60,057 nucleotides of DNA, filler included, from Dugesia japonica (GCA_001938525.1; 6 parts of 6 records of this genome joined end to end with filler, not necessarily neighbours in it); one strand, 5' to 3'; positions 3,931 through 53,820 are shown, counted from the first letter of the whole stretch. Notes: generated by a model not told the origin, from the sequence alone. Made by a program: numbers and translations.

Positions 3931-4029
3931 AATTACATAATAAATTTAATTGATGGATTAATTTTCCGATGATGTAATTACAACGTAGATTAACTATCAA
4001 ATTACAGATAATAGCACTAATTACATCAC

Positions 4030-4215
4030 TAATCCTGGGGGGACTACTTAATGTGTGCTGAGGTTGTGCGCTACTATATACCTACTTAGATTTTATATAG
4101 CAGAATTTGTAATGTTAATTGATGTCGTTCACAAATTTGGATATGTCCATGAAGATTTTAAACCAAATAAATTACTATTGGACTTTTATTTTTTCAAATT
4201 GATCAATTTCAAGAC
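4030..4215 (+). pseudogene. AGC kinase (NDR/ROCK/DMPK-like) catalytic-domain fragment
   Basis: PGG..; LRFYIAEFVMLIDVVHKFGYVHEDFKPNKLLLD..FKLINF resembles RFYIAE..LAID..H...HRDIKPDNLLLD..IKL.DF. Catalytic residues are degraded. Confidence 0.7.
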
Positions 4216-5249: not shown

Positions 5250-5410
5250 ATAAATCAAAAATGTCAATTTCTGATGAAGACAAAGTCAAAAATTCGAAAT
5301 AATATCAACAAAAATAATTTGATCGAATCTTTTATTTTAATGAAATATCAAAAACAATCGATGGTTACGTCCAACAATTATTCTTGAAATGATTGTAATT
5401 GTAAAACAAC
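5250..5410 (+). repeat. Copy of the ~170-bp hammerhead-bearing short repeat (core mutated, GAAA to AAAA)
   Basis: CTGATGA-A-GAC-AAA-GTC-AAAA-ATTC at 5271-5295, followed by the family body (TTTGATCG...ATGGTTACGTCCAACAATTATTC...ATTGTAAAAC). Confidence 0.7.
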
Positions 5411-6764: not shown

Positions 6765-6860
6765 TTTTTGGCGGAAATTCAAAAAAATAATTTTGGCGAG
6801 AAATTCAAAAAAAATAGTTTTGGCGGGAAATTCAAAAAAATTGTTTTGGTTGGAAATTAT
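6765..6860. promoter_or_regulatory. Tandem E2F + CHR-like (DREAM-type) sites
   Basis: Three to four copies of TTTTGGCGG(G)AAATTCAAA; the reverse complement is TTTGAA-TTTCCCGCCAAAA. Confidence 0.6.
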
Positions 6861-7414
6861 TCATTTCAATGGGGAATCTTAAACTTAATTTAATTTAATT
6901 AAATTTGAATTAAATTAATTTATTTATGTAAGAGATGTGGCAGTCTTAATATTTTGCATGCAGAGTCTATATATTTTGCATAAGATAGGATGAATTGATA
7001 TTTTTTAAGATATTTCTCAAGATATTACAAGATATTGGACAGTCTTGATATTTTTAAAGATATTATGACAAGATATCGCGCAGTTTTGATATTTTTTAAG
7101 ATATTATTACAAGATATTTAATTCTCTTTCAATGGGGAAATATTTTAATTATAATTAAATTAAATTTAATTTAATTAAATTTGAATTAAATTAATTTATT
7201 TATATAAGAAATGTGGCAGTCCTATATTTTGCATAAGATGGGCAGACGTGATATTTCTTAAGATATTTTTAAGATATTACAAGATATTGGACAGTTTTAC
7301 AACTGCAATTATTGCGAGAATAATTGTTGGACATAACCATTGATCGTTTTATAGAATTCATTTAATATAAAAGCTTTGATCAAAATTTAAGTATTATTTA
7401 TTGATATTGGATAA

Positions 7415-7451
7415 CAATTCGATATTTCGACCTTGTCTTCGTCAGGAATTG
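7415..7451 (-). ncRNA. Minimal type I hammerhead ribozyme (Penelope/retrozyme type), intact
   Basis: Minus strand reads CAAUUC-CUGACGA-A-GAC-AAG-GUC-GAAA-UA-UC-GAAUUG: 6-bp stem I, complete core, 3-bp stem II, palindromic AUAU stem III, AUC cleavage triplet. Confidence 0.82.
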
Positions 7452-8478
7452 ACTTTTTTTTGACAGTCTTGATATTTTTAAGATATTATTACAAGATATT
7501 TTTTGAGATAATATTACAAGATATCTTGCAGTCTTGATATTTTTATTCAGTATATGTGTGTTGTAGCTGTAATGCTTTTGAATGCATTTATGAAAATATA
7601 TCTATTAAAAAACTTTAAAGATGAGTGACTTTGTGATAATTACATAATAAAAATATAACTATTAAAAATAACCAAAGAGGGAGTCCTTGTGATATTTGCA
7701 TAATAAAATATAACTTTTATTAAAATATTCATATAAAAAATGTTCAAAGTGGGGAGTTTTTGTGTCATTTATATGAATAAATATTCAAATTAAAACTTTT
7801 CATTACAAAATGATAAAAAACAGAACTTTTTTCAAAACATATTATTATTGGTAATTTTATATAAAAAAAATATATCATTACTGATGCGCTGCAATTTTTA
7901 ATAAAAAAATATTATAGATGTGTTGACAATAATAAAACGTCTGCCCTATATCTTGTAATGATATCTTAAAAATGTCAAGAATACCCATAACATGCGTAAA
8001 TATATTGTAATAACATCTTCAAAAATATCAAGACTGCACGATATCTTGAATTAATATCTTAAAAAATATTAAAAGTGTCCATAACATGCATAAATATCTT
8101 GTAATAATATCTTAAAAATATCAAAACTGCCCGATATCTTGTAATAATATCTTTAAAAATATCAAGTCTGTCCAATATCTTGTAATATCTTAAAAAAATA
8201 TCACGACTGCCCATCTTATGCAAAATATAGGACTGCCACATCTCTTACATAAATAAATTAATTTAATTCAAATTAAATTAAATTAAATTAAATTTAATTA
8301 AATTAAATTAAATTTAATTATAATTAAAAGATTTACCCCATTGAAAGAGAATTAAATATCTTGTGATAATATCTTAAAAAATATCAAGACTGCCCATAAC
8401 ATGCATAAATATCTTGTAATAATATCTTAAAAAATATCAAAACTGCCCAATATCTTGTCATAATATCTTTAAAAATAT

Positions 8479-9900
8479 AGTAGGGGGATAGTGGCGCACT
8501 AGCCCACCTTGATTTTTTAGCCCACTTTCATATTTTGCTGTTATCGGAGGGGATCCCCCTCCCCCTGGGGGGGGGCTCAGAAACACATTACGCTGGGATA
8601 TGTTTTTTTAACTATGATTTTTGTGTTGGTTTTTTTCCAAGATTTTTGGGATCAAAAAATTTTTGATCGGATCGGTTTTTTTTATCCTGGTGGTTTGTGT
8701 GTGTGTACTTTTAAATTTAAAAATTTTTGTGTGTTTGGGTTGTTAAGGTGGTTTTTAAAAAGTAGGTCAAGTTGAGTTTGTGTTTGTGGTTGTGTGTGTG
8801 TAAGTGAAAGAGTGAAAAAAAGGAGGAGGAGAAGTTGGAAATCTTGGAAATAATTTTTTTTTAGTTTTTATGATTTGGTTGATGTTGGACAAAAATATTG
8901 TCTATAAATTGTCTAAAGGACTTATGAGATTGGATGGATGGTTTGTCCTACAACTATGGTGGCGCACTAGCCCACTCGTATGAGTTATTGTGGGTCGTTT
9001 TTAGGAAGGCTGTAGGTTTGAATGTGTTTGTTGGAATTTGTTGGTTAATAGTTTGTTGGAGAGGTATTGTAATGGAAAAGATTTTGTATATCGAATGTGC
9101 TTTGATTTTTTAATTATAGGGCTACTATTTGATTGGTTGATATTTGTAGGTAGTATAAAAGTTTTAAAAAATATTTTGACTGGGAAGGATGGATTTTCAT
9201 ATTTTTCGAACGAAGAAGTAGGGATTCTTGTTATTTTTTAGTGGGAAATTCAAAAAACATTTGGCGAATAATTTAAATTTTTTTTTGGCGGGAAATTTAA
9301 AAAAATCTTTTGGCGGTTAATTCAAAAAAAAATATTTTTGGTGGAAAATTCAAAAATAATATTTTTTAATTTAAAATTTTTCATTTAAACCAGGGAAATC
9401 TTTTTAATATAAATAAATTTAATTAAACTAATTTATTTATGCATGGTATAGGCAGTCTCTATATTTATGCATGTTATGGGCAGTCTCTATATTTATGCAC
9501 GGTATAGGCAGTCTCTATATTTATGCATGGTATGGGCAGTCTTTATATTTATGCATGTTATGGGCAGTTTCTATATTTATGCATGGTACGGACAGTCTCT
9601 GTATTTATGCATGTTATGAGCAGTCTCTATATTTATGCATGGTATGGGCAGTCTCTATATTTATGCATGGTATGGGCAGTCTCTATATTTATGCATGTTA
9701 TGGGCAGTTTCTATATTTATGCATGGTATGGACAGTCTCTATATTTATGCGTGTTATGAGCAGTCTCTATATTTATGCATGGTATGGGCTGTCTCTATAT
9801 TTATGCATGTTATGGCAGTCTTGATATTTTTTAAGATATTATTACAAGAAATTTATGCTATGGGGAGTCTATATATTTATGCATGGTATGGCTAATCTTT
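8479..9900 (+). mobile_element. Second, diverged copy of the same TIR arm, abutting or inserted into the first element
   Basis: Starts AGTAGGGGGATAG. Colinear with 5831-7000 (CATTACGCT, TTGATCGGATC, GGTCAAGTTGAGTTTGTGT, GTTGGACAAAA). E2F-like array at ~9240-9350. Confidence 0.65.
9436..9900. repeat. 28-bp minisatellite (ATTTATGCATG[G/T]TATGGGCAGTCTCTAT), about 14-16 units
   Basis: Directly visible tandem array; related to the GCAGTCTTGATAT subterminal repeats at 6940-7550 and 7930-8478. Confidence 0.92.
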
Positions 9901-10214
9901 ATATATATATGCTCAAAGGTATTTAAAGTATAAGACAATAATTTTTTTTATTAGTTATTTTTTTTTATTAGTCCATTAGTTTTAATTATTATTATTAATT
10001 ATTTTCATGAATGTTTCAGTAGCAGTCTTGTTTTCCTTCCATACCATTACTTTACCTCCTCCAACATGTACAGTCCGACGAAGCAAATCCATCAAGGTCT
10101 TTAGCATCCAATTCGAGTCCGCTCATAATTGAACTTATCGATTAGCTTGCTTAGTTTTAACTAAGCTAAGCTCGATTACAGTATGTGCATCTCCGGTAGC
10201 AGTGTTCCTCACGG

Positions 10215-10730
10215 AGCAAATTCCCAACTAAAAAGCCTATAAAAAATATTACCACCTAAAAAGCCTGAAAAATATTACCGTTTAAAAAGCCCAAAAAATT
10301 TTCCNNNNNNNNNNNNNNNNNNNNNNNNNNNNNNACTTTGCCGTCTAATAAGCTTGAAAAATTTTCCCAACTAAATACACAGGAAAATATGTAGCCACTT
10401 AATCCTATTACGTAAATTTTCCCGGAGATGAAATTAATCTNNNNNNNNNNNNNNNNNNNNNNNNNNNNNNNNNNNNNNNNNNNNTTAATTAATTAANNNN
10501 NNNNNNNNNNNNNNNNNNNNNNNNNNNNNNNNNNNNNNNNCTTTTTAGGGTCCTAATTGCACCGATTGGTTTTCTTCTTGATTTTTCTTGTTGGAATATT
10601 TTCTGACGTCCGGGACCAAAGTTATCCGTATAAAACAGATTTTTATCTAATTTTCGTTTATTTTTTGTTTAAAATTATTTAATTTTTTCTGTATTAATTA
10701 ATTATTTTTTATTATTGTTTTCTGGTTGCT
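10215..10730 (-). repeat. Inverted partial copy of the promoter/leader module (copy 1), spanning the linker
   Basis: Reverse complement of 10600-10700 (AAAATCTGTTTTATACGGATAACTTTGGTCCCGGACGTCAGAA) aligns with ~13950-13995 (AAAATATGTTTTATGCAAATAACTTTGCTTCGGAACATCACAGAA). Reverse complement of 10360-10440 aligns with ~14400-14500. Confidence 0.6.
10441..10540. other. Assembly linker (44N + TTAATTAATTAA + 44N)
   Basis: The same 100-bp spacer, with stops in all six frames, occurs five times. Confidence 0.97.
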
Positions 10731-10924
10731 TCCTTCAAAATTATTAATAATTTTAATTGTTGATCAATAATGGGTTCATTTCTTCTACACCTTCTTCATT
10801 GCATGTTCATTTCTTTTTATTATCACCTTTAGATACTTTATCTCTTTTCTTGATTTATTTTCTACTTTAGTGGGTGTTCCACCCCAACAATATAACCAGA
10901 ACAATAATGTAAATTTTGTAAATA

Positions 10925-12120
10925 ATGGAATTCGATTTGGACTTATCAATAAACGTAGCCAGAATTATAATGAATGACCCAGACATTGAATTATTCGGTA
11001 TGAGCAAAGGTCGAGAAGAAATCAAGTAAACCCCAGTAACAAAAAACATAATGCACTACCGTAACATATTTGCAGCACCAGAAAATTTCATAAGTAAAAG
11101 GGTGTGTTACAGCACAATGAAAGTGTTTGATGAGAAGTACAGGGATGAAAATGCAAGAAAGCAATCGTTATTCCAACTACCTAAATATTTATACGGTCTC
11201 ATTGAAGCCCTAGCCAAATCAGGATTTTACTACGTCGGTACCCAAGAACGACCAGATAGAGTAAAATGTATATATTTTCAAGGCATCCTACACAAATGGG
11301 GCATGAATGAGCAACTCAATAAAGCACACAGGAAATGGTTTCCTACCAGTCCATTCTTGCTAAATGTAAATGTAAACAACAAATCCCAACTAACTAAAGG
11401 AAGAAAATCCAAAACCGAGAAAACTACCATGGAACCAAAGCGGATATACTGTAAAATCATAAAGAACTTAGCAGAAGTTGCCCTGCTAGAAGATCTGGAA
11501 TGGAATATCGAAGAAAGAGAAAAAACGTTCAAAGAATCACCAAATCTGAAAGAAAAGCCCTGGATGGATTATACTTTGTCCAACAAACCAGAAATAAAAT
11601 TATCAAATGCACCAATTGCAAACGAGAAACTCTATTACTGCAGGGAATAGAGAAATTACCAAAGAAAATATTTCATCAACCAAATGGTTCAAGATTAACA
11701 CCAATTTACGAGGAAGAAATACAAACCACAGCATGTAGAATCGAGTGGAATATGTCGAGTAACAGAATAGAAATGGCAATTGAATTACAGACTAACCGAC
11801 TGTCTAATATCTTAAAGTTAAATAGGATGAATATCAAACAGTTAATAAACCAAACGGTCACAGAAAAAGGGTCTGAACTAGTCACACCATATGAGTTATA
11901 TCAAAGATCACTCAAATCAGTAAAACCACAGGTAAAATATGAGCGGGAATGGGTGTTGCTAGATCATGATTGCGTTATCTGCCTTTTAGAAACCATCGAG
12001 GTCGTATTTCTGCCATGTGGACATTTTAAAACATGCTATAATTGTGCTATAAACTTAAATGAATGCCCTATGTGTCGAAAGTTAATTGAACGAAGAACAC
12101 TAGGAATAAAATTTCAATAA
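10925..12120 (+). pseudogene. Intronless IAP-like gene, BIR-(degenerate BIR)-RING, with one early stop and one frameshift
   Basis: BIR1: RKQSL..LP.....LAKSGFYYVG....DRVKCIYF..ILHKW.......AHRKWFPTSPF (two Cys lost). BIR2 remnant: REKTF..LDGLYFV..IKCTNC..H. Intact C3HC4 RING: CVICLLETIEVVFLPCGHFKTCYNCAINLNECPMCR. AATAAA at the stop. Confidence 0.88.
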
Positions 12121-12217
12121 TAAATAAAGTTAGATATGTAAATCATGTATGATTATATATACTTATATTTGTCAACATATTATTATAATAAAATAATTAC
12201 TCTCTCTGATTTTAGAA

Positions 12218-13371
12218 ATGAACGTGGAAAACCTAATAAACCATCTCCGCAATGAGATTCAATTCTTACAAATACAAACTCAAACCCTCACAACCGTACC
12301 AGATGTCCTAAAATGGAAATTGGAATCCAAAATCGATGCCTTTTCCAATTTACAATTGCAAAAATATATTAGCGAATTGGAGAGCCAAATAGAAAAAGCA
12401 CGTCACGAATTNGAAATAAAAAAGCGATCGTGCAAAACCCACCAAAAATACATAAAAAGCAATATCGACGCCAATAGAGCGAAAATAAATGCTATCAAAC
12501 AAGCCCAAAGCTGGAAGAGTAAATATGAGGAAGTCGAACATAAAATAAAGTTACTCGAGAATCAACTAATAGTCGAACAAGAAAATAACCACAGTTTTAG
12601 AATGGAACTGTTTAACACGCAGTTTGAAAAAAATTATCTGGTTACCGAAAATCAATTCCTAACCAGTCTAGCCAATCGAGAAAGGGTACAAGCTGATATC
12701 CATAAATTGTCCTTGGAATTCGAGAGCATAATGCAAGATTACCAGCAAAAGAATGAATTTTTACAGCAATACATCGAAGCCCTAGAGCAGGAAATCATTG
12801 AAATGCGAAACCTCTACCATGGAAAAGAAGATAAGATGAAACAAAAACAACAACAGTTAGTCGAGCAATTTGCCACCATTAAGGAACTACAGCAAGCGCA
12901 CACAGCTCGCAACCAATCTTTCATCCATTAGTACTACCGATCCTACCACACCTAAGGAATCTAATCATTCTTAATCCACCCAAATCAACACTAAACCCTG
13001 ACGCTCCAGAATGGCAACCAATAATCTCCAGTCTACTAAGACAATACACACCGTTAATAATCCAGGAACCCACGTCAGCTCCAGTTAAATCTAGAATACC
13101 AGAATCGATAAACAAAATAATTGATCAGGTCCCGCACATAATTTCAGCACCTACTCAACCCAGAAAGTCAGTACCTTTAGTGATACAAGAAACCCAAAGT
13201 AAACAACTCGGTTCTGCAACACCCAGCCGGATACACAGTAGAACCTCAGTGTGGAATCATAACCAATTTAAGAGAAACCTGTCCCAGTCAATCGTAACGG
13301 AAATATTACGAAAATTTGGTTCCGAAATACGAGCTAGTGACCTGGACGGTCTAGTAGAGGAAGTCGATTAG
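12218..13371 (+). pseudogene. Coiled-coil protein with Pro-rich tail, PAM2 motif and C-terminal EEVD (one frameshift between ~12883 and 12928)
   Basis: TTTTAG-AA-ATG start; 237 aa of heptad-rich sequence. The alternative frame is open 12883-13371, contains KSTLNPDAPEWQP and ends GLVEEVD*. AATAAA at 13392. Confidence 0.75.
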
Positions 13372-13599
13372 AACAAGTTGAGCGCGATGTAAATAAACTG
13401 TAATTAATCCATCGGACATCAATGAAGGGAATGAACTGTAAACTTTAATGTATATTGTATTTGAATGTATAACGTAGAAATTTTTATGTATGTGTTATGA
13501 GATAGCATGTAATGACCTTAAAATTCACCTTGCTCTGTCAGTTTTATTGGGGATAGAGGAGTTTCTGCAACGGGGACGAACTGTGACAAATTCCGGGAC

Positions 13600-14535
13600 G
13601 GAATTTAAACAAGTCGGAGAGCGATTTGTTGGGGTGGAACACCAGGACAAAGAGAACTAAGACCACGGGGGTCATCAAATACAAGTTATGGGAAAGGAAG
13701 TAAATTACGCAAAATGATTAAACGAAAAAGAAAAACCGGCACAACCATCGGATAGAATGATAAACCCAAAGTTTAAATAAACCATATAAAGGAAGCCGAT
13801 ATAATAAATTCGAACAATCCAATCGAAGTCATCCAATTAAGAAAATTATCGAGTTATTATTTGGATGAATGAGAAGATTAGTTAACAAACGATTTAATTA
13901 TCAAGAAAAAAATTAATTAATTTAATTTAAAAATAAAGAAAAATGATGTCAAAATATGTTTTATGCAAATAACTTTGCTTCGGAACATCACAGAACGACG
14001 GTGCAAGAAAATTCCAGAAGAGAAAAACAAGGGTCATTAAGAATTATCTGGAGAAAAAACTTACCATCATCCGGAAAGGTACTGTAGGGTTTCCAAGATC
14101 GAACCAATCAGATACCTAAAAATAAAAATAAAACAAAGAAGGAACCATCACATGGCCCTCTAAAAATACCTACCAATCAGAATTCCAAAACTCTACAAAA
14201 AATTCTAGAATAACAGCACCAACACCAATAAAATTCTAGAATTCTAAAACAAAAATACCTACCAATGAGAACGGTGCTGGGTTGTATCAAAAAATCATAT
14301 AAAAAGACCCCTGAACTTAACAGAAAAACACACAAAAATTTGAATATTGTAACTGCTACAGCAGCATTATATTATAAAGAAAAATTTTCATAGGAAACGT
14401 TAGTGAATTCTCATCGCAAATATAATTCCGGGAGAATATTCAATAATTTACGAAGCAGTCCAGAAAAGGAAATCGTAGCAAAATTTTAGTTGGAAAAGTC
14501 CCTTGCAGAAAATTCTATTAATTTTAATAGTAAGT
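13600..14535 (+). promoter_or_regulatory. Promoter/leader module (copy 2): CCAAT cluster, TATA box, candidate leader exon ending at a GTAAGT donor
   Basis: CCAAT at 14104, 14173, 14225 and 14262; TATAAAA at 14298; GTAAGT at 14530; TTGTTGGGGTGGAACACC at 13626 shared with 20238. Confidence 0.62.
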
Positions 14536-14736
14536 AATATGTTGGATGTTTTTATTTGTATTTAAATGTAATCTTAAATTAAATTATTAATGTCGAAATA
14601 ATATATGTTGGATATTTATGTTTTTTTATTTTTTGTTATTATCGTGATAAATTACCTCAAAAGAAAGTAATTAATTTATAAGTAGACATTATAGATCAGA
14701 TCCATGTTATGTCTCTTTTGATGTAGCAGAAACCAG

Positions 14737-14883
14737 ATGGGTGTTCATAAAGACGCCTGTCACAGCAAGAAAATGAATGATCAAAAAATACCCATGAAAA
14801 CGTACCAGTTCGCGAGTGCATATTCATTCATCGCTATAAATCAATTTCACCACTCTGTCATTAGGCGGCAAGTATTAAACTAA
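14737..14883 (+). CDS. 48-aa mini-ORF of the cassette, unknown function
   Basis: Pyrimidine tract + TAG/CAG immediately before the ATG; MGVHKDACHSKKMNDQKIPMKTYQF...RRQVLN*. Confidence 0.3.
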   Translation: MGVHKDACHSKKMNDQKIPMKTYQFASAYSFIAINQFHHSVIRRQVLN

Positions 14884-15149
14884 TTACATACAGACTCAGC
14901 AAAAAGAGAGCCCACTAACTAATTAGTTAGATGGTAAAATATCTCGGTTTCTCGTCGTGCCACTCACTGAAAACGCATCACATTGTTAAACACACTAAGA
15001 TGGGCGTGTAGGTAAACCAAGGTCGAATTCGATGTCGTTCCTAAGCGACTGTAAAATGCCACAATTTAAAAGATTATAATTAGCAATAAAATCATTGTAT
15101 CTGAATGAACAATTTTTAAATAACTTCTCATTATAGGAGTCTATTGGTT

Positions 15150-15321
15150 GCTTCATTGATATTATTATTATTATTATCACTATTGTTAGTATTATTATTA
15201 CTATTATCATTAACATCACGACTATTACTATTATTATTATTAGTATTTTATGGTTATTATCTTTGTGACGATCGTTATTATTATTAGTATTATTAATATA
15301 ATCATTAATATTATTAATATT

Positions 15322-15382
<61 letters not shown>

Positions 15383-15700
15383 NNNNNNNNNNNNNNNNNN
15401 NNNNNNNNNNNNNNNNNNNNNNNNNNNNNNNNNNNNNNNNNNNNNNNNNNNNNNTTATTATCGTTAATATCTTTATTATTATTCGCACCATTATATTCAC
15501 AATTATTATGATCATTTTAATTATCTGTCCAATTGCTAATGACCATATTATCGATATTATTATTAAAATACGTATCACTATTATTGGTAGTAGTAATCGA
15601 TGAGTTATTACGTTAAATATCAATGTCCAGCCGATTAATAATAGTCCGAAGTCATGCGGATCATCATATATATACTTTTTGTGAATCGGCATGTATTAAT
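15150..15700. repeat. (ATT)n microsatellite with degenerate flanks
   Basis: Pure ATT core at ~15325-15382 running into a gap; degenerate triplets on both sides. Confidence 0.92.
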
Positions 15701-16027
15701 AAAAGTAATAGTAATTCGGTATTGTTATCCTCCCTCTCAATTTTGGAGTGTTATCCACATTAAAATTATAGCCTGAATTTACTGTTACGGTTACATTAAC
15801 ATTCTGGTGGCGTGTAGCATCAGTAACGTTAACTGTGGTATGTTTTATCAGGATTCTGCACGTGGGTCAATTACCCATGAACAGCGATGAATTTACATAG
15901 GCCATTTCAGAGAGCAAGGGTAGAGACTCCCCACTAGTATTACCTGAAAGTAATGCCGATCCGGTTTTTCTTAAGGAACTAAATCATTAGAGATGTTGTT
16001 AAAGTATGCTCTTCTTACATTTAGCTT

Positions 16028-16210
16028 ATGCCCGTCAAATTGTGTCGGATCCTGCGAAAGATAGAACGACAGAGACGAGCTGTTCGTAGAAAACAGTTGA
16101 TAGCTCACATAATAACCCATGAAAAAATAGAGCATCCGGATGAAACGGACCTGTGCTGTTTTGCCGAGAAGTTCCCCATGGACGGGAAGGTAGATTTAGA
16201 CGAGGAGTAA
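16028..16210 (+). CDS. 60-aa mini-protein, family A (paralogue of 22891-23076)
   Basis: CATTTAG-CTT-ATG start; gapless 24/60 identity with the ORF at 22891 (RKQLIxH, PDExDLxCFxExFP, VDxD). Confidence 0.75.
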   Translation: MPVKLCRILRKIERQRRAVRRKQLIAHIITHEKIEHPDETDLCCFAEKFPMDGKVDLDEE

Positions 16211-16351
16211 TTACTTTCCTTAGTGTAACGGGTATCTGTGTGTTTAAATATACCAGGAAATGAAATTTTGTAGTTTTTATTTTTATAATTCGTCTATTAT
16301 GTCTTAATGTGGTGTAATCTAAACTTTACTAGCCCTATTCTGTTCTTAGGT

Positions 16352-16708
16352 ATGGACTCTATATGGATACGTGTCATCGATAGGTGAACCCGTCGACTAA
16401 CTCTGCGTCGATATCACAACCCGCATAATCAGGATGCCGGTATCTTAGTTTACGGGTCAAATTTACCACCGGTCGAATCAATCGTTGCCCGCATTAATGA
16501 TTTTGGAGAACGGCAGCGATACCAGGCGTGGACGGGCCTGGATCGCACTTTAGCAACTTCATTTTCATACCAACCTACCACTCTCGCCCCAGCTCCTGCG
16601 ATACAAGCGTTCATCGCTAATCTTCTCTGGAGAGTCCGAGAGCCGAATGGTGTAGCTGATGCGGAAAACACTGCCCTCAACGCCGACAATAATAATAATC
16701 CTTCTTAA
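16352..16708 (+). pseudogene. 118-codon mini-gene with one internal TGA (not in the ORF track)
   Basis: TTCTTAG-GT-ATG; MDSIWIRVIDR*TRRLTLRRYHNPHNQDAGILVYGSNLPPVESIVARINDFGERQRYQAW...NNNNPS*; GC-richer than flanks; AATAAA at 16730. Confidence 0.62.
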
Positions 16709-17022
16709 ACTGTTTGGTTATTTGTTAGAAATAAATAAGTGTTTCATTTGTGACTATTTCTAAATTTTCTTGTAAATCGGATTTCTAGTGATCGTGATTT
16801 AATTTTGACTTTAGTATTTTTTTGCGGTATTATTTGTAACGGGATTGGTCTTATCGATTTTATTTAATAATATTGCTAGTCAAGACCACCCAACTTTTCT
16901 AATAATAGTTAACATTGAGTAAAGTGTAACACCTTAAACATGTTTATATTTCAGTGCATTCGACTTTAAATAGGTTCCAGGTCCCGACTAAAAAATGACG
17001 AGAAGATAATGATGACAAGGAG

Positions 17023-17313
17023 ATGACTTGGGATCTTTATAAACTAGCTAAGAGGCGATGGGAAGCAGAGATCGCCGCGGCCGACGCTAAAGTAAAACGC
17101 TACAAGCGAAAATGTTTAACTTTTAAAGCCNAAATGGACGCCACCCAGAAACAAGAGAGGGTGTGGAAGTCCCAGGTTGAAACATTTACCAAGATGGTCC
17201 ATTCTTATCAGGAGCGGGAGAATAATTTGATGGAAAATATATTGAAGCTGAGAGCAGCGACACCTTTGGCCCCTCTCTTGATAGATAAGGGCACTCAGAC
17301 CAACCGCTCCTGA
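17023..17313 (+). CDS. 96-aa coiled-coil mini-protein ending in an LC8-binding motif (DKGTQT)
   Basis: ORF track; acceptor TTTCAG at 16954; AATAAA at 17342. Confidence 0.65.
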   Translation: MTWDLYKLAKRRWEAEIAAADAKVKRYKRKCLTFKAXMDATQKQERVWKSQVETFTKMVHSYQERENNLMENILKLRAATPLAPLLIDKGTQTNRS

Positions 17314-17416
17314 GTGTTATGTTTACTAATTATTTGAGTTTAATAAACTATTTAATTGTCTTTTATAATTATGAACTTGAGTTTTCGTCAGTTTACTTGT
17401 ATTTTGTTTTCATTCA

Positions 17417-17800
17417 GTGCCACGAATTAACTTTCCCAATAGTATCCGGAGATGCCATAGAATTATGCGCCGCTTACTAGTCGAACGACACCTAAAACGT
17501 AAGACAGATAGGGCACTTATGAAACATTTAGACCAACGGGATCAGCTGATTAAAAAATTAGATTTAATTATAAAAAAGCAAAATGACCTGGCGGTTCAAA
17601 CTTAAGCTTTGGAAACCGAAACCAAACAGCTGTTGCTACGGAAAATCGAGTTCATAAAGCAATACATTGCTGATCTGTCTCGTCGAATAGGCAACCCATC
17701 TGTAACCCAAGAGGATGACGATGAAGACATAGCAGCTTTCAACTTTGTGGTAACAGAGCCCAACCAGTGGCTAGATCCAGAGGCACTGGATTTACTTTAA
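17417..17800 (+). pseudogene. ~127-codon mini-gene (basic / coiled-coil / acidic tail) with one internal TAA
   Basis: ORFs 17417-17605 and 17609-17800 are in frame; acceptor TTCATTCAG at the start; AATAAA at 17812. Confidence 0.62.
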
Positions 17801-18486
17801 TATTTTCAAAAAATAAATTTATGAAATCAAATTTGTAACTCCTTTCTTTCGATAGTAACGATAGGGAAACCATTGAACCCAAATATAAAGGTTTATCGGT
17901 GCGTACCTTCCATTGAGAGTAAGGTCAACCACCATGAACTGAAAGCCTACCTCGGGGACGGTAGGATAAATTCTTGAAAGGGTTCCCCTGAGGGCTGTTT
18001 TTTCCCCAGTCACCTTTTCTTGTCACTCGACTCAGGTGGGACCCCAACAGTATTATACATTGGAGTGTTAACTTGAGTTTCTTCAGGTAATGATTATTTC
18101 ATTAAGTGAATTATCACATTTAATAAGCAACTTGGAAATGTGTCGAGAAAGAATCATGCTTAATAATATGGACTCACAACTAAGGTTTAATAATGATAAA
18201 AATAACTGATTCTAAAATCTCAAAAATGAATTAACGCGACTTAAATGTAATAAAGTAGCGAAATAAGAGTCAATATTTGAGAGTCCCTGAGTACAATAGA
18301 GTATGAAGCACTCACAGCAAAGTCTCAACTCCTTGCTCGTATAGATTAAAAATCATAAAATTCATAAACTTGGATTTTCATAATGTACAAAAGTAATGAC
18401 TGATTTATTATAAAAATACTATTAATTAAGTGTGAACATTTTATTAATAATTAAATAAATAACTTCAATATTGTAAAAATTTAGAA

Positions 18487-18930
18487 ATGGTTAAAAATAT
18501 CTCGTTAACAGAAACTGTGAAATCATTGAACGGGTGGAACTTCACTGCACCGCCACCATATAATAGACCAGTACTCTACAATTCCTGGAGTGATGTGATG
18601 ATATAGACCCTTGGTGGATGAGGCAAGATAAGTTGCAATTACAAAATCTAAAGACCAGGAACAAGAAATCGCAGAAATGAAAATTTAGTACAAAACCAAA
18701 AAAAGCAGTAAAAACGAAATCAAGCGTTAGCAGATTTGTTTAAGAGTTCTATTAAAGTTTCATAGCATCTTATTAGGCCACCACAACGTACAGAAAAAGG
18801 AACCTTCATTAATCGTGTAGTACAAGAATAAGTAAAGGTTGCGGAGCGCATAGAGGCTCGCATTGAGCAGGTTATGCCGACCTTGATACCATATTTAATA
18901 GAAGATTGCAAAATAATTGTCGAAATCTAG
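18487..18930 (+). pseudogene. Degraded mini-gene containing PPPY
   Basis: TTTAG-AA-ATG; MVKNISLTETVKSLNGWNFTAPPPYNRPVLYNSW... then frameshifts; AATAAA at 18946. Confidence 0.5.
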
Positions 18931-19124
18931 TTTTATTCAAGTGTAAATAAAATTATTATAGTTTAAATGCGTTTTGTGTTAACGTACGATAATTTTAAAG
19001 TTACGAACTAGTAAATAACTATCATAATTATTAATGAAAGTTGACAAATTCTATTTTCTTTTATTATTATAACAATATGTTTTTAAGCTTTCCACATAAA
19101 CATTGTTTAATTTACAAAATTTCA

Positions 19125-19472
19125 ATGAAAATCACCAAGCTATCTCAAGAGAAGTTGTTAACAGAACAATGAAACAGTACGATTGAGTTGAAAAAGATGC
19201 GCAAAGAGATTAATGAATTAAGAAATTCGGTCAGTATCGCTAGATAGAAGATATCAATTCTGTGAGAAAGATTAAGCGTGAGTCGCCAGAAGGAACTCAC
19301 TCTAATCACAAACAACAGGATGCTCGTTGAGATAATCAAACCGTACGCCTACAAGGAGGCCAAACATGAGAACATTATGAAAGGAATATAATGGAAAAAC
19401 GAATAAAGATTCAGACTGTGAGAATACCAAGGAGACTATATTTGGCTCTCAATATATCAAATGTGTAAATAA
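19125..19472 (+). pseudogene. Degraded 115-codon coiled-coil mini-gene
   Basis: One continuous frame MKITKLSQEKLLTEQ*NSTIELKKMRKEINELRNSV... with several stops explicable as single C>T changes; AATAAA overlaps the stop. Confidence 0.45.
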
Positions 19473-20229
19473 ATTTAAAGTCATAACGACCGTATTTTCT
19501 TAGTTTTTAAAATAAATAAATTAATAAATATGAGCAGGAACACCAGTTAACTTTCTTCACAAACGGGATACAGTATAGTCCTGCATAGACCACGGTTTAG
19601 ACTATCGACTCACAAAGTGTCGAAAAGTTTCTNCTGGCTTCGAGGTATCTACTCCTAGAAGAGATAAATCACTGCAAAAAATAAACCAGGCAAAGAAAAA
19701 GAAAACATCAAAATCTTGAAGCCCTACAAAACTTTTGTTTGATAATTGAATTAATGAATTATTGAATATTTTTGTTGGAAGATGTCGGGGTAGAACTTAT
19801 TTACAGATAAAAAGTAAAATTAAACAGAAAAATTAAACAAAGTAGACAAAAGATTGAAAAGAAGAAAGAAAGAAACAAATACATCATTAAAATAGAAGGA
19901 AACGCCACAAGAACAGAGGATAATGAGAATTTATAAGCAAATGAATTATTTAGCGGAAAATTTATTAGGTATAAAAAATAAATAAATTATTATCATATGG
20001 AAATTTACATTCAGAATAAGTTACAAATTAATTAAGAGTAAAGGAACCCGAAATTGAAGAATATAATTTGTTACAAATTAATTATGAGAAAAATGATTTA
20101 ATAACTTAAGAAATCATCCATATACAACAGATTACCAAGCGGAAAATAATTACATTAATAACAAAAATTATTAAACATCAAATCAAATATTTGCCGAATC
20201 AGTCAGAACTAAAATATATAATTATTTTC

Positions 20230-21196
20230 AAACAGAATTGTTGGGGTGAAACACCGGATTAATGCAAAGAGAATTGCGTAAGTAAGCACGAAATTCGAAA
20301 AATCTACATGAGAAAGGAAAATGAAGAAATCAGACCCAAGAAGGGCATAATCTAGTTGGAGAGAAGAATGACGAAAGCCAAAATGAGACTAGAAGACTTA
20401 AACTCGTGAAAAAACTAGAACTACAACAGGAGATAACGACGAAATAAAAAAAACCAACAAAGTAAAGAAGCGGTACTCCAAACAACGAAAATAATAAACG
20501 ATGGCCAAGGAACTGATTCATTAATTGAAAAGGAAATAATGAAAAGGAAAATCAAGATTGGTAACCAGAACCAACGAAATAACCAAAAATCACAGCACGA
20601 AACAATTCAGAAGTAAATAAACCGAAGAAGAAAATGTAATAGAAGCTGTGACAGGACGACAAAAAATCTAATGATTAACCATCAATTCATTAGGCAAAAT
20701 CAAGAAAATCACACCGAATCATACTAGAAGAAAGANNNNNNNNNNNNNNNNNNNNNNNNNNNNNNNNNNNNNNNNNNNNNNNNNNNNNNNNNNNNNNNNN
20801 NNNNNNNNNNNNNNNNNNNNNNNNNNNNNNNNNNNNNNNNNNNNNNNNNNNNNNNNNNNNNNNNNNNNNNNNNNNNNNNNNNNNNNNNNNNNNTTTTAAA
20901 TAAAAAATTAAATTTTCTACAAAAAACTAAGAAAATTAGGACTTCTAGTGGTGCCAAAATTATCAATTTAGAAATTTCTGGTCGAGAAAAATCTGGAGAA
21001 CTCAAAAATCAAACTTAGAAAACCATGGCAAGGAAGAGAAAAAAGTTATAAGGGTTTGAAGGTTGACCAATAGTTTCGAAGTCCAAAAATAACCGCCAAT
21101 GAAAAGAAAGCATGTGACCGTTTGGCCAATAAAAGTGTCGAAAATTTATATTCACCAATGGAATAAACGGGGGTGTAGAAAAAACCGGTATAAATA
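20230..21196 (+). promoter_or_regulatory. Promoter module (copy 3): four CCAAT boxes at 29-30 bp spacing plus TATA
   Basis: CCAAT at 21067, 21096, 21126 and 21155; TATAAATA at 21189; TTGTTGGGGTGAAACACC at 20238 (17/18 identical to 13626). Confidence 0.7.
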
Positions 21197-21296
21197 NNNN
21201 NNNNNNNNNNNNNNNNNNNNNNNNNNNNNNNNNNNNNNNNTTAATTAATTAANNNNNNNNNNNNNNNNNNNNNNNNNNNNNNNNNNNNNNNNNNNN
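21197..21296. other. Assembly linker
   Basis: 44N-TTAATTAATTAA-44N. Confidence 0.97.
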
Positions 21297-21708
21297 CTTG
21301 ATTTATTCATTATGATATTTAAACATAAATAAAAAAGAAAAAATTAAGTAAAAATCACAAATTATCATGTTAAGTTATTATAAAATCCATTGAACTTAAA
21401 TATTGTCCACCGATAATTATCGTCTACTGAGAAATAAGTAGTTGTCTTTGAAATTAGGCATGCCAANNNNNNNNNNNNNNNNNNNNNNNNNNNNNNNNNN
21501 NNNNNNNNNNNNNNNNNNNNNNNNNNNNNNNNNNNNNNNNNNNNNNNNNNNNNNNNNNNNNNNNNNNNNNNNNNNNNNNNNNNNNNNNNNNNNNNNNNNN
21601 NNNNNNNNNNNNNNNNNNNNNNNNNNNNNNNNNNNNNNNNNNNNNNNNNNNNNNNNNNNNNNNNNNNNNNNNNNNNNNNNNNNNNNNNNNNNNNNNNNNN
21701 NNNNNNNN

Positions 21709-22700
21709 GTTATTATTGTTATTCAAACTATGATAATTAATCTCCGTGAATAATAGTATTTCTTCATAATTAATGTAATTGTTGCCATCATTATATTTAA
21801 TTAGTATCATTACTATAATTATATTTATTCCCATTATTATTGCGTTTACTGCTAATAATATATTCCAGTCAATACTTCATTTATGACTATTATTAGTTTC
21901 AGATAAATGTTACCCTTAATTCTACAATCTTTTCATTCTAGGCGATCCATACACCCGATGATTATTATTATTACAAAGGTGAATATTAGAGTCATGATTA
22001 TATTTATGTCTACTAGTGATACCAGTTGAATAGTAATTCCCTACTATTAGTGCCAAGATAGTTATTATTGAAACGATCTTGATATTATGTTCAGTCTATA
22101 ATTAATATTATTTTGAGTATTGGGAATTTAGAATCGATATTATCGACATCATTAACATAATTAATATGATTATAACCAGTAATATTATTATTATTCTTCT
22201 CATTTCTGCGGGTAACCTCATTCTATTATTATTATTTTTACTTATTATTAGTAGGATTCTTATTATTGTTATCACGCCTATTATTATTACTACGTTATTA
22301 TGATTATTCCTATCATGATAATCATTGCAATTGTTATTGATACTGTTTTGTTAGCATTATTATTATTATTACTATTATTATTTTTACTACCAATAGTAAT
22401 AACATTATTATTATTAATCTCGTTACTGTTATAGTATGATTATCATTATTATAATTATGTTTATTATTAATTTCAAGATTACTACCACGGNNNNNNNNNN
22501 NNNNNNNGCTAGTATTCTTATGAATTCAATATTTAATTTTTGTATTATCACCATCAATATTACTATTATTATTGCACATATTATCATATTTATTACAATT
22601 ATTATTATATGTATGAGCATTATGATTATCCCCTATTTAGTTTCTTTCCTTATTAGTATTCGTATTGTTGCTATTAGGACTCCCGTTATTCACTAATGTC
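21709..22700. repeat. Long degenerate (ATT)n tract
   Basis: ATT/TTA/TAT triplet periodicity with many substitutions. Confidence 0.88.
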
Positions 22701-22890
22701 GTGATCTCTATTATGGACGTCGTCTTCACATTTATCTACTCTTAAAAGTACTTAAAATATAAATATTATCAATAACGTACGAAGAGTGTTAAACATAAAA
22801 TAATCGATATCGCTCCCGTTAAGTATGTAACATAAACTACCGGACAATTTTTCGAGTTTAATGGGTTCTGATAATTTTTTCTTTAGGAAA

Positions 22891-23076
22891 ATGTCGAGGA
22901 GTTTAAAAGACACATTAAATTTCATTCGGCCAGAACAGCAACGAACCAGCCGGAAACAGCTAATCGGACATCTCCTCTTTCTGAGTATTATCCCTTCTCC
23001 CGATGAGTTGGATTTACAGTGTTTTGTCGAGATGTTTCCCTTGTCTACCTATGTGGATATCGATCGGAAACTCTAA
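22891..23076 (+). CDS. 61-aa mini-protein, family A (paralogue of 16028-16210)
   Basis: TTTTTCTTTAG-GAAA-ATG start; MSRSLKDTLNFIRPEQQRTSRKQLIGH...PDELDLQCFVEMFP...; AATAAA at 23105. Confidence 0.75.
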   Translation: MSRSLKDTLNFIRPEQQRTSRKQLIGHLLFLSIIPSPDELDLQCFVEMFPLSTYVDIDRKL

Positions 23077-23309
23077 CTTATTCAACCAAATTTTAATTGC
23101 AGTAAATAAATATTTTATGAAATGGCGTTCATTAATTGATAATTGATTTTTGATGTGCTAGGATGTTTAGAGTGCTGGGGCAGGGTAGGGAGGGAGAATT
23201 TGAATTGACCAATCAAAAAAGTGAAGTCATGCTGACCTATCTACCGTATATTTGTTTTAATTAAGTCTAGTTAGCGGGAATTAAAAATTTTTTTTGGCGG
23301 GAAATTTAA

Positions 23310-26010
23310 AAATTCAAAACTACTCAAATAGTTCCTAACAAGCTGTTCAATCAAAGAGCAAAACACACTTTCCACAAGATCAAAGGTGAGCTCACTGAGT
23401 CTAAATACTTACTTCACAGCAGATATATGAAAGCCCTTTGAAAGTATTTCATGAAATTCTTGGATCTACAATTCCAGTCTCAACACCAACTAAAGAGAAT
23501 ATTATCAATTATTTCACTCAGATTCTGCCAGAAAACCTAAATCTAGATAAGTTTAAATTTCTTGATATTTCACTCTATCAACGAAATAAAATTAAATAAA
23601 ATCAAAACTGCTTTCAAAAGCACTTAGAAATCTTCATCCGGGATGAATAGAGTCACTTACTCCGATTGGCTTAAAATTGATCCCAATAACATATTTCTAC
23701 AGGCTCTCTTTAGCAGAATTCTACAGATTAAATATATACTTGATCAATAGAAAACGTTTTATACTAATCTCATCTTGAAACTGGTTAAAGAAAAGGAATC
23801 TCATCAAGTCTCATCTTGAAAATTTATAGCAATTTTGAATACCTCATACCGAATTTTTACAATTGTTATAAAAAACAGAATTCTCAGTTGGATTTCAGTA
23901 GGAAACTCACTCTCACCAACTCTAAATGTGACTTATTTATCAGATGGATGCTCACAACACAATGCTACAATACAATTAATTAGAGAAAAAGCTGAGCGCG
24001 AGAAATGGAATCTTAACCTTACTTGACTTGATCTGGCAGACACCTTTGATAGTACCCCTCAGAAAATACTCTGATTCATGCTTAAACATATTGGATTACA
24101 TCCTGAGACCGTTACTCTTTTTAAGGAGTTATACAAAGACATTTATTGTTCTTACAAATGTCTAGACATAAAAACAAGCGATATCAAAATCATTAAAGGA
24201 GTCAAACAAGGATGTTCTATGTCTATGACGCTTTTTAGCCTGATCATTGATTTCATTATTATAGTAACCTCAAAAGCATTTCCTCTAACTCTTAATGGGT
24301 ACAATGTTACCATTTTAGTTTATTCAGACGATCTTGAACTTATCTCCAATAATTACAATCAGACGAATCATATGATAAACAAAATTGTAAGCTTCACTGA
24401 TACAAGCCGTCTAAAGTTCATACCAAGCAAATGTGGATTCTTCCAACTTAAAACCCAAATAAAATATCAAAATTTACAATAAAGTGATTCAAAAAATTAA
24501 TGATGAAATTCTATACAATTACTTGGGAGTATCATTAGGAGAAGCTAAGAAAAACAACCTTAAAGACATAATCAACAATGCAATAGAAGACTTTGGAAAA
24601 ATCACAGAAAGCAGTCTTCATCCGTCATTAAAAGTCCAAACATAAAAATGTTTATTCATTCAAGATTAATCTATGCTATGAGGAACCGAGACATTTTCTA
24701 TATGAAACTGAACAACCCTCATCACAAAAAGTTTGATGGCAGTACAAGACAATCAGATTATCAAAAGAATTTTTAAGAACATCAATCAAGCTCCAAACAG
24801 CAGTGACAATAATGCCTTTCCTTTCGTTCTATCTAAACGTGGAGGATTAGATTTGTTGCCTTCAATCGATGAGTACTATATTCAAAGTATAGTAAATGCC
24901 TTCCGGATCCTCAATTCTCAAAAGAATTGTTTCAAAGTGTTAACAGCTAGGGAACTTGAGCACAGATTCAGAAACAATAGCACATATTCGATCCAAAAGA
25001 CCTTGATGCATAACAACACTATTCCATCTTAAGATAAAACTAATATTACTGCATCTTTGTGTACCAGAGTAAGGACGTTAATAAAAAGACTTTACGAAAC
25101 TCATAAACTCAAACTGCTCTTCTTTATTGAAGAAAATGAAATAGAGCTGAAAATCACTTGGCTGGATGATTAGAACTTTTTTCTCAATATACTGATCAAA
25201 AACAGCTCAAAATCTTAGTTGTGCAATGTCCTTCATACTAAAATTGAAATGACATATTTCCAAAAATGGAAAAGCCTTTCCACACAAGGTCTTCTAACAA
25301 CATGTTTAGACTCATCAGACTATGCTCAAAATTTTATGAAAAACTTAAACCTTTCTGAAAACGATTACCCATTCATTATTCGAGTAAGAAACAATCTTTT
25401 GAGAACTAACTACAATCCTAACAAACTGAAAAGCAACATACCAATTCATTGCAAAGAATCTGGTACTGAAGCTATAAACTTAAATACACATATTTAACCA
25501 CTGCTCAGCGAGGAGGAATAAACAGTACAATAAACACAATCATGTTAAGGAAAAGATTGTAGCTCAACTTAGAAAATGGAATTTTGATGTAGAAATTGAT
25601 TCATGTTCACAAAGCTTTGCAAAAGCTAGAGAAGATAATAGGAAAAAATATAAGAGCATCAAATTCGAAATTAGCTCAAAGTTCTACAAAAAGGTTACAC
25701 TTAATAATCTTGTCATTGGAACATTAAACTCAAGGAACGCCTTCAATCAAAGGGCTCTCAAACATATTGGTCTAACCTCAAATGAAATAAAGAAAATCTC
25801 GTAAATATCAATCAAAAGAGTAATCAAAGTGAGCTATCATATTTACTTAAATCATATAATCAATGAGGCTAAATTTCCTTCAATTCAAAACTAAATTCTG
25901 TTTAGACTCAAATGTCCAAGAAATTTATCAAATTGAGTTCTTTCTAAATAACCAAATATAATAAAATAAAAATCTATGATCTCGGATTTATTCGAATCAT
26001 TCAAGACTTA
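23310..26010 (+). mobile_element. Degraded RLE-type non-LTR retrotransposon (NeSL/R5/R4-like), 5'-truncated
   Basis: RT motifs DLADTFDSTP, GVKQGCSMSMTLF, VYSDDL, KFIPSKC, YNYLGV; RGGLDL thumb; C-terminal HCK..E...HI..C..HN zinc remnant; KY and LVIGTL of an RLE domain. Confidence 0.85.
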
Positions 26011-53750: not shown

Positions 53751-53820
53751 TAATCAAAAACTATGTTTTGATGTTTAAAAATAAAAATAATATACTGTTT
53801 TGTTAATCCATTTTATAAAC

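Follow-up and report, generated by a model that had tools for sequence, protein, structure and literature searches.

The region analysed here, part of a window of 60,057 nucleotides (filler included; six parts of Dugesia japonica records, GCA_001938525.1, joined end to end), contains separate LTR-like ends of different subfamilies that were inserted near each other, and it is not a single periodic cassette (Table 1). With moderate confidence we read it as several giant Ty3/gypsy LTR elements of a Burro-like kind, nested together, in which four short open reading frames (ORFs; L1-L4), all located inside one LTR-like unit (B), would be antisense. The termini, the high copy depth, the conservation of the ORFs and the DNA signals were observed directly, whereas LTR identity, direction, splicing, translation and membership in Burro are inferred.

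Table 1. Features of the analysed region, in positions of the whole window.
Feature	Position	Strand	Description
End A	10541-10889	+	349 bp LTR-like end, inverted relative to B, ends ...CCCCAACA; left side truncated by scaffold linker
Broken intronless IAP	10928-12120	+	BIR domain, C-terminal RING, AATAAA at the stop
Frameshifted coiled-coil gene	12218-13371	+	237-aa coiled coil (12218-12931), then frame 12883-13371
Primer-binding-site (PBS)-like 12-mer	13613-13624	-	2 nt past CA end of B; one mismatch to CCA end; structured segment
Unit B	13627-18049	.	LTR-like repeat of 4,423 bp with TG...CA ends; terminal inverted repeat TGTTGGGGT, imperfect
Promoter and leader in B	14104-14535	+	Four CCAAT, TATA 14298, 210-nt ATG-free stretch, donor GTAAGT 14530
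Degenerate (ATT)n tract	15160-15620	+	Inside putative first intron; 72 N included
L1	16028-16210	+	60-aa protein; acceptor 3 nt upstream of ATG; no AATAAA within 60 nt (this copy)
L2	16352-16708	+	118 codons with one private in-frame stop; acceptor 2 nt upstream of ATG; AATAAA 22 nt past stop
L3	17023-17313	+	96-aa coiled-coil protein; AATAAA 29 nt past stop; weak acceptor 16954 fails strict rule
L4	17465-17800	+	111 codons, coiled coil and acidic tail; one private in-frame stop; acceptor 47 nt before ATG; AATAAA 12 nt past stop
Low-copy spacer	18050-20238	.	Decayed frames only; X1 bin depth 8.6-118; contigs 98-100% identical
Unit C	20239-23130	.	Another subfamily, of higher abundance; has the terminal motif, a cluster of four CCAAT, TATA 21189, ATT tract, 61-aa L1 relative; other end missing, right limit approximate
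L1 relative in C	22891-23076		61 aa; with acceptor and AATAAA

Termini, copy depth and shared architecture

The terminal motif TGTTGGGGT was common to the ends of three separate high-copy repeats (4 matches against ~0.1 expected), that of End A sitting at 10889. Comparison with reads and contigs (data sets X1 and X5) covered the stretch 15620-20735, in which contig depth shifted ~10,000-fold at 18049 and again at 20239, with the low-copy 2.2-kb spacer in between. Exact depth steps were found at 2 of the 4 terminal motifs (~8,000-16,000 times the spacer median in X1); the drop in X1 from 241,730 (17843-18013) to 16.9 (18185-18355) marks 18049 as a true repeat boundary, and in the same data set depth climbed from 118 to 276,782 across 20237. 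Summed contig depth was ~200 times the spacer median in the interior of B and ~10,000 times at the termini, which, as relative depth and not true copy number, agrees with the thousands of copies of Burro-type elements. The spacer is an insertion target outside the high-copy repeats, and its frames had no significant similarity to L1-L4, the IAP or the coiled coil.

The first-pass annotation had described three diverged copies of one promoter module, one of them inverted. As DNA homology this did not stand: only A aligned to B (10570-10701 vs 13894-14024, 71% over 132 bp, E 4e-11; score 76, maximum of 100 shuffles 46), whole-promoter homology being confined to ~140 bp of this one pair, and neither B vs C (score 36) nor A vs C (score 43) rose above its shuffles (maxima 40 and 47), these two pairs sharing only a 17-nt terminal motif and the architecture. 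The inverted copy does not begin at ~10215 either, since 10215-10440 lies outside A, past a 100-nt scaffold linker (N44-linker-N44, 10441-10540), and matches a different repeat at 3734-3891. The architecture itself was borne out in both direct copies (B and C): each holds a CCAAT cluster (14104, 14173, 14225 and 14262 in B; 21067, 21096, 21126 and 21155 in C) and a TATA box, followed by a degenerate ATT tract (TRF calls at 15160-15382 and 22224-22469) and then a member of one 60-aa family (23/46 aa identical between 16028-16210 and 22891-23076, E 2e-14; local score 107, shuffle maximum 41). The proposed 6.6-6.9 kb survives as two spacings (6,612 and 6,863 bp) and not as the period of one element, since 18050-20238 is low-copy and its neighbours are high-copy. 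In C, which would be the end of a third element from a more abundant subfamily, a scaffold linker (21197-21296) separates the promoter from the ATT tract, 505 N fall within 20239-23110, and relatives of L2-L4 were not found.

Unit B has the anatomy of a giant LTR and probably is one. TG...CA termini with short inverted repeats stand at 13627 and 18049, as in LTRs, and between them follow, in order, CCAAT boxes, TATA, an ATG-free leader (0 ATG in 210 nt vs 3.8 expected; ATG-free in 1.6% of 10,000 shuffles), a splice donor, the (ATT)n tract and the four ORFs. The inverted repeat is imperfect and short (about 9-15 bp). No target-site duplication was found around B, as expected if 13627 is the junction of LTR and internal region, with the partner ends outside the window, and no second copy of B was found in the window. 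Conservation among families is highest at the 18049 end, where depth reached 804,440 (17994), and such a block may be a better fit for U5 than for U3. Folding of the last 150 nt at 18049 was no better than that of shuffles (z -0.38 and +0.36); a possible hammerhead in 17940-18000 was discarded on visual inspection, and Rfam had none. The Rfam scan of 10545-23300 returned 0 matches and ARAGORN 0 tRNAs; no gag, PR, RT, RH or IN was found within 10541-23130, and RT/RNase H fragments at 24078, 29391 and 47625 were assigned to other elements.

Short ORFs of unit B and the adjoining genes

Where about nine intronless genes had been annotated, we count seven credible ORFs (the IAP, the coiled-coil gene, four in B and one in C), 4 of them broken here; the IAP was upheld by its BIR and RING domains. 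An exact-sequence look-up of 5 window proteins in the protein collection found 0 present. AATAAA lies within 40 nt of 6 of the 7 stops (background 0.11), and strict acceptors stand just upstream of 5 of 6 ORF starts (IAP left out). Within B, three of the four ORFs have a splice acceptor and three a polyA signal. The stretch 15620-17850 contains 41 ATGs, and just two of them, the starts of L1 and L2, have an acceptor no more than 5 nt away.

At the L2 stop position, 6,273 of 6,284 summed depth in X1 and 4,094 of 4,094 in X5 read otherwise, as did 3,031 of 3,031 (X1) and 1,405 of 1,408 (X5) at the L4 stop position. Because both stops are absent from almost all other copies, and because the 60-aa protein has two diverged relatives, the ORFs look selected. 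The third family member (P0002; same start and length, 48% identical) was retrieved by HMMER from 1.84 billion representatives together with one other match (P0003, a copia-like polyprotein, E 4e-4), which was rejected; a word search returned P0002 alone of 5 candidates. Contigs of diverged copies join the end of L1 to the L2 acceptor region and the end of L3 to the L4 acceptor region and skip the spacers, which indicates that ORF order is kept. Across 13 bins, depth and ORF cover were correlated (Spearman 0.65 and 0.64, p ~0.02), a relation that GC bias (ORFs 41-49% vs 29%) could partly explain. This copy is decayed and without detectable expression, RNA giving only 134 and 29 partial reads on 15620-20735 (3 at at least 95%; strand mixed). 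These reads showed no splice junction, the stretch they cover starting downstream of the donor at 14530.

No match above noise was found for L1 or L2 in Pfam, PHROGs, PDB, Atlas or fold comparison (folds: L1 model only). Atlas gave no usable match for L1, and its RHS-type matches for L2 (0.91-0.92), with low recognition and few shared features, were treated as noise. AlphaFold models of L1 and L2 were poor (pLDDT 60 and 45), and fold search with the L1 model stayed within noise (no match at E 0.001; best Z 5.2). The 60-aa family was found in 0 of 120 candidates from viral contigs; 1 of 218 from metagenome contigs (L001) was rejected as a chance bacterial stretch. An alignment of L3 to the coiled-coil gene (z 3.7) was not accepted, an antisense frame scoring z 4.1 in the same test.

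Beside B, the IAP (Pfam: BIR E 9e-10; zf-C3HC4_3 (RING) E 5.6e-14) carries an in-frame stop near its start and a frameshift between BIR and RING, and two of the four zinc ligands of its BIR are missing in alignment to solved BIRs. Among 36 candidate relatives of the RING frame, 1 was a hit and was rejected as a generic RING protein. The coiled-coil gene has an acceptor 2 nt before its ATG and AATAAA 21 nt past its stop; its frame 12883-13371 holds a PAM2-like motif (14.6 bits, under the cut-off of 20) and a short ankyrin-like end (20 of 20 PDB matches were ankyrin/DARPin chains, no single stretch being significant). The coiled coil was found in 0 of 6 candidates from viral contigs. For words of 11000-13370, no RNA data set was listed, and the best DNA data set contained 0.35 of them. 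Among the accessory features of Burro (BIR/RING, Smc-like, ankyrin), BIR and RING are thus significant here, a coiled coil is present and the ankyrin-like end is weak. The earlier assignment to a Burro-like LTR/accessory region fits the termini, copy depth, BIR and RING, coiled coil and faint ankyrin-like motifs, and its single repeated module was abandoned; the host-manipulating role proposed with it finds support in the IAP alone, through its family, the four LTR-internal proteins having no recognisable one.

Direction of unit B and competing readings

The PBS-like 12-mer suggests that the element lies on the minus strand and that all these genes are antisense to it. Its tRNA-like end of 9 bases was shared by tRNA ends at 12 of 25 viral loci (those viral tRNAs being Asn or Gln), folding of 13540-13680 gave z -3.07 (+) and z -1.88 (-), and a second pattern search for a primer-binding site returned nothing. 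On this orientation B would be a complete 4.4-kb 5' LTR (18049 to 13627, minus strand), followed by the primer-binding site and then by internal accessory sequence with the coiled-coil gene and the IAP, which the end of another element (A) would interrupt at 10889. The CCAAT cluster may be bidirectional, starting the genomic RNA one way and an antisense unit the other, in which splicing across the (ATT)n intron would join a non-coding leader exon (~14325-14529) to L1-L4 as alternative terminal exons; this antisense strand would also carry the IAP and coiled-coil genes. With a polyA site for each exon on that strand, one promoter could yield several short proteins and leave the genomic RNA uncut, and an array placed in U3 would be copied twice per transposition and kept by solo LTRs. 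Weak points here are the mismatch of the PBS-like site, L3 without a strict acceptor, L1 without AATAAA in B, and the failure to find an attached gag, RT or integrase, a second copy of B in the window or a target-site duplication around B.

The same giant LTR could run in the opposite direction, which we consider doubtful. B would then be a plus-strand 3' LTR with U3 from 13627 and a start near 14325, the IAP and coiled coil would be 3' accessory genes that receive the leader by splicing, and L1-L4 would be sense within a very long R/U5. TATA, leader and donor all lie on the plus strand, the bases ahead of 13627 are purine-rich (13613-13624 can also be read as a weak polypurine tract on +), and the conservation of the 18049 end would suit this direction; however, three AATAAA in B would precede gag on the genomic RNA, past 18049 there is no PBS and the flank is low-copy, and the purine run, which is not continuous, has the look of the 3' end of a tRNA.

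Ginger-type DNA transposons have TGT...ACA inverted repeats at least tens of bp long and a 4-5 bp target-site duplication. That B and C are short-inverted-repeat units of this kind (non-autonomous), or DNA-virus fragments, with mini-gene cassettes and with the IAP cassette as their target, seems to us unlikely. In its favour, their ends start with TGT and form inverted repeats, they have no linked reverse transcriptase, their compact genes, each having a polyA signal, are like those of DNA viruses, and in one X5 contig only 26 bp separate a D-type end from a C-type start; but the repeat of B falls short of that length, the duplication expected of a complete DNA-transposon insertion is missing around it, no relatives were found in viral contigs or PHROGs, and the neighbouring motifs match Burro.

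A single cassette made by tandem repetition of the promoter-ATT-mini-gene module is very improbable: B and C share the order and a similar TATA-to-ORF distance (1,730 and 1,702 bp), but the low-copy 2.2 kb between them, their very different high-copy depths, their unalignable DNA and the lack of L2-L4 relatives in C largely refute it. We give just as little credence to chance frames in a GC-richer LTR, conserved for a DNA or RNA role and untranslated, for which the missing family matches of L1 and L2 and the low, mixed-strand RNA would speak, since L1 relatives are 40-48% identical as proteins where the DNA no longer aligns, the stops are private to this copy, and acceptors and polyA signals frame the ORFs.

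Comparison with known systems

Burro elements exceed 30 kb and encode a polyprotein of ~4,900 aa. BIR, Smc and ankyrin motifs, tandem repeats, accessory ORFs and thousands of copies are given for them in the excerpted text of PMC6431247, and an excerpt of PMC13465017 assigns a BIR+RING IAP to Burro1 and cites a report that the IAP of giant planarian LTR elements protects stem cells (Lee 2026). As far as these excerpts go, the region resembles Burro1-4/GYPSM1 of Schmidtea mediterranea in a multi-kb LTR-sized unit, very high copy and a tandem repeat (PMC6431247), and in a BIR+RING IAP, an Smc-like coiled coil, a faint ankyrin-like motif and accessory ORFs outside the polyprotein, and it may belong with them. 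Unlike Burro, the region has no polyprotein, env, MATH or BCL2, and a published BURRO1 primer had no match. As to the host, an EF1-gamma C-terminus had its best match at 69% and matched diverse named animals at 57-67%, a result that points to an animal and goes no further. The excerpted PMC6431247 treats the LTRs of giant planarian elements as non-coding and, unlike B, makes no mention of LTR-internal ORFs, an antisense unit or shared-leader splicing.

Antisense accessory ORFs with tandem repeats, as proposed here, are described for the plant Ty3/gypsy elements Retand/Tat, Grande and RIRE2 in the excerpted PMC11963269, which also names HTLV antisense genes; the plant ORFs lie between pol and the 3' LTR and are mostly TRP28, whereas the four of the window lie inside the LTR-like unit and are unrelated. 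In S. mediterranea, judged by eye from part of PMC8532177, GLT2 has short ORFs between AT-rich spacers with an acceptor and GLT has a CCAAT box before a short ORF, both like B; a GLT2 primer had no match in the window. A literature search with narrow phrases on ORFs within or encoded within an LTR (retrotransposon, gypsy) found no report.

We tentatively propose that an animal Ty3/gypsy LTR can be a multi-gene unit, in which a non-coding leader is spliced to four terminal exons antisense to the genomic RNA, with portable host-regulating micro-genes spread across thousands of LTRs and solo LTRs; their predicted products would be conserved proteins of 60-120 aa from no known family. The L1 tail (PDE.DL.CF.E.FP, then acidic residues) may resemble the part of adenovirus E1A and papillomavirus E7 that binds pocket proteins, with the Glu of L1 displaced by one and the Cys absent from P0002; by this likeness L1 could drive stem cells into division, with the IAP keeping them from dying. 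If an LTR does encode four selected micro-proteins from one spliced leader, this would give a reason for LTRs of 4-5 kb, enlarge the gene content of the host genome by thousands of copies missing from its annotation, and offer direct RNAi targets in a regeneration model.

Genes that overlap the LTR or run antisense occur in complex retroviruses (MMTV sag, HIV nef, HTLV-1 HBZ, foamy bel). B would be like them in its LTR-driven, putatively spliced accessory transcripts and in having genes in U3; they have one such gene per virus, whereas B has an array of four with separate polyA sites, an organisation that, if true, would resemble the transcription unit of a DNA virus more than a standard retrotransposon.

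Boundaries and abundance of the repeat units

Two contig sets (X1 and X5) and two RNA runs (X12 and X15) were aligned to 15620-20735 at 80% likeness. Summed contig depth in X1 was 1,100-13,800 over the interior of unit B (15962-17842), 241,730 at 17843-18013, 8.6-118 over the spacer between units B and C (18185-20236) and 126,000-478,000 from 20237 onward, giving a contrast of ~200-fold for the B interior and 6,000-16,000-fold at the termini; summed depth does not equal copy number. Because these depth steps occur in X1 and recur in X5, 18049 and 20239 mark where high-copy repeats stop; the spacer between them, whose contigs were 98-100% identical at a depth of 7-14, is low-copy, and the abundances of units B and C are far apart. 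The 6.6-6.9 kb period that the first-pass annotation assigned to a repeated module is therefore the distance separating two insertions, with low-copy DNA splitting the high-copy B and C. In one X5 contig only 25 other letters separate an 18049-type end from the 20239-type start that follows it; this tail-to-head pair of such repeats, from elsewhere, hints at clustered insertion. The spacer contains decayed plus-strand frames and AATAAA signals and may be an older LTR gene array; comparison with L1-L4, the four short ORFs inside unit B, gave no significant similarity.

Unit B (4,423 bp) starts with TG, ends with CA and carries imperfect inverted repeats at its termini, an anatomy that, judged from sequence, is LTR-like. 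The terminal motif TGTTGGGGT was found 4 times in 60 kb, with ~0.1 expected. A 6-bp hairpin at 17946-17965, near the 18049 end, lies beside the best-conserved block of the repeat and is kept in the RNA loose-end consensus of relatives, where one pair is changed on both sides (assessed by eye). The surrounding animal DNA, for which a planarian is a plausible host, is AT-rich (GC of 27-36% over most 1-kb stretches of the window), and the assembly is gapped, its pieces being joined by N-linkers of 100 nt at 10441-10540 and 21197-21296.

Three diverged copies of one promoter had been proposed. Units A and B do align as DNA (132 bp at 71%; score 76, where the best of 100 shuffles reached 46), whereas B versus C (score 36, shuffle maximum 40) and A versus C (score 43, shuffle maximum 47) showed no similarity above shuffles; 10215-10440, previously taken as a piece of the inverted copy, belongs to another repeat. 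The layout common to B and C consists of four CCAAT boxes, a TATA ~35 bp downstream, an ATT tract and the 60-aa ORF, with a TATA-to-ORF distance of 1,730 bp (B) or 1,702 bp (C).

Features of the window (positions along the whole stretch)
Feature	Position	Strand	Remarks
Unit A	10541-10889		
Unit B	13627-18049		
Unit C	20239-23130		
Spacer	18050-20238		
TGTTGGGGT sites	13627, 20239	+	motif search of window
TGTTGGGGT sites	10889, 18049	-	motif search of window
L1	in unit B	+	60 aa; strict acceptor ends 3 nt upstream; no AATAAA within 40 nt
L2	in unit B	+	118 codons; strict acceptor ends 2 nt upstream; one in-frame stop
L3	in unit B	+	96 aa; weak acceptor only
L4	in unit B	+	111 codons; strict acceptor ends 47 nt upstream; one in-frame stop
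IAP gene	10928-12120		BIR + RING domains; broken by stop and frameshift
Coiled-coil gene	12218-13371		frameshifted; sub-threshold PAM2 motif, weak ankyrin-like end
Decayed non-LTR (LINE-type) element	23300-26000		just past end of unit C; RVT_1 (E 1.6e-12) at 24078-24482
Polinton/Maverick-like remnant	53800-55400	-	weak matches to a double jelly-roll (E 0.003) and to an integrase (E 0.0007)
EF1-gamma gene	32645-34291		matches diverse animals at 57-69%; exact 141-nt duplication (33268-33408 = 33638-33778) next to runs of N, probably produced by the assembly
28-bp satellite	9434-9829		14 copies
306-bp tandem repeat	36139-37206		3.5 copies
Dispersed repeat	6098-6960, 8792-9473, 23279-23312, 30413-30654		TTTGGCGGGAAA runs, E2F-site-like
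Gypsy-type RNase H and RT fragments	29391-30127 (-), 47625-47918		ordinary; unlinked to units A-C

Gene array and expression of unit B

On the plus strand, unit B carries in order a TATA, an ATG-free stretch, a donor, an ATT tract and then the four ORFs. The 210 nt past the TATA (14298) are without an ATG (3.8 expected; 1.6% of shuffles), and the GTAAGT donor at 14530 is one of three strong plus-strand donors in 10000-23300. Among the 41 ATGs in 15620-17850, only the starts of L1 and L2 lie ≤5 nt from an acceptor; acceptors were also found 2 nt before the coiled-coil gene beside unit B and 4 nt before a 61-aa ORF of unit C. AATAAA lies ≤40 nt from the stop in 6 of 7 ORFs, L1 being the exception (background 0.11). 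At the in-frame stops of both L2 and L4, >99% of contig depth reads otherwise in X1 and X5. Contigs from diverged copies jump from the L1 end to the L2 acceptor region or from the L3 end to the L4 acceptor region (5 of 15 among the joints listed). Depth correlated with ORF cover (Spearman 0.65 and 0.64 over 13 bins), with GC as a confounder.

Relatives of L1 are the 61-aa ORF in unit C and P0002, on a 1,041-nt contig (E 2e-14, 48% identity over 60 aa). Alignment of the three retained 20 columns invariant across all of them although B and C DNA no longer aligns at this ORF, which points to selection on protein. Domain, protein and fold searches gave no family or fold assignment for the small ORFs of unit B.

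X12 yielded 134 mapped RNA reads among 13.6 million and X15 yielded 29 among 11.6 million, all partial, with none at 99% identity and 3 at 95-99%. These reads sit on L1, on L3 and at the 18049 end; their mates point in mixed directions, and their loose ends come from diverged relatives. The window's copy of unit B looks silent, and its relatives are transcribed at a low level.

Direction of the element

On the minus strand, 2 nt beyond the CA at 13627, a 12-mer reads as complementary to the 3' end of a tRNA, apart from one mismatched base; no tRNA-complementary site lies in the AT-rich flanks that follow unit A, unit C and the 18049 end. The segment holding the 12-mer has a more stable fold than shuffled sequence (z -3.07 on the plus and -1.88 on the minus strand; best of 8 folds tried). 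A pattern search gave no support for a fit of the 12-mer to eukaryotic tRNA-Asp. Viral loci with its 9 bases after a T-loop were tRNA ends in 12 of 25 cases (9 Asn, 2 Gln and 1 assigned to neither); because the search pattern forced the T-loop, these matches show only that such ends exist. We favour unit B as a minus-strand 5' LTR, and regard a unit running on the plus strand as plausible and less probable. As a minus-strand 5' LTR, unit B would have all accessory genes antisense, and the genomic RNA would then be free of their polyA signals.

Neighbouring genes and comparison with known elements

Retroviruses have single LTR-overlapping genes. In the literature text searched, no account was found of a gypsy LTR that houses an array of four genes; Grohme 2018, Lee 2026 and figures may show one. 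That the array is a spliced set of micro-genes, carried by the LTR and acting on the stem cells of the host, is a tentative and rather doubtful proposal.

The expected IAP was recovered in its BIR and RING domains, in broken form, and its BIR domain is missing two of four zinc ligands. According to PMC6431247, Burro1/GYPSM1 is present in thousands of copies and contains tandem repeats and accessory ORFs as well as motifs of the BIR, Smc and ankyrin types, and a passage of PMC13465017 cites a BIR+RING IAP in Burro1; relative to these accounts, the BIR+RING IAP, the coiled-coil gene and its weak ankyrin-like end are comparable here. In the way they work, unit B and its neighbours resemble an LTR element of the Burro type that carries accessory genes, and they may belong to that group. 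Of the Burro-like LTR/accessory region first proposed, the LTR-like termini, high copy, BIR/RING and coiled coil hold, whereas the single repeated cassette does not. In plant Retand elements, as far as the excerpt of PMC11963269 describes them, antisense accessory ORFs lie between pol and the 3' LTR, whereas the four ORFs of the window lie inside the LTR-like unit.
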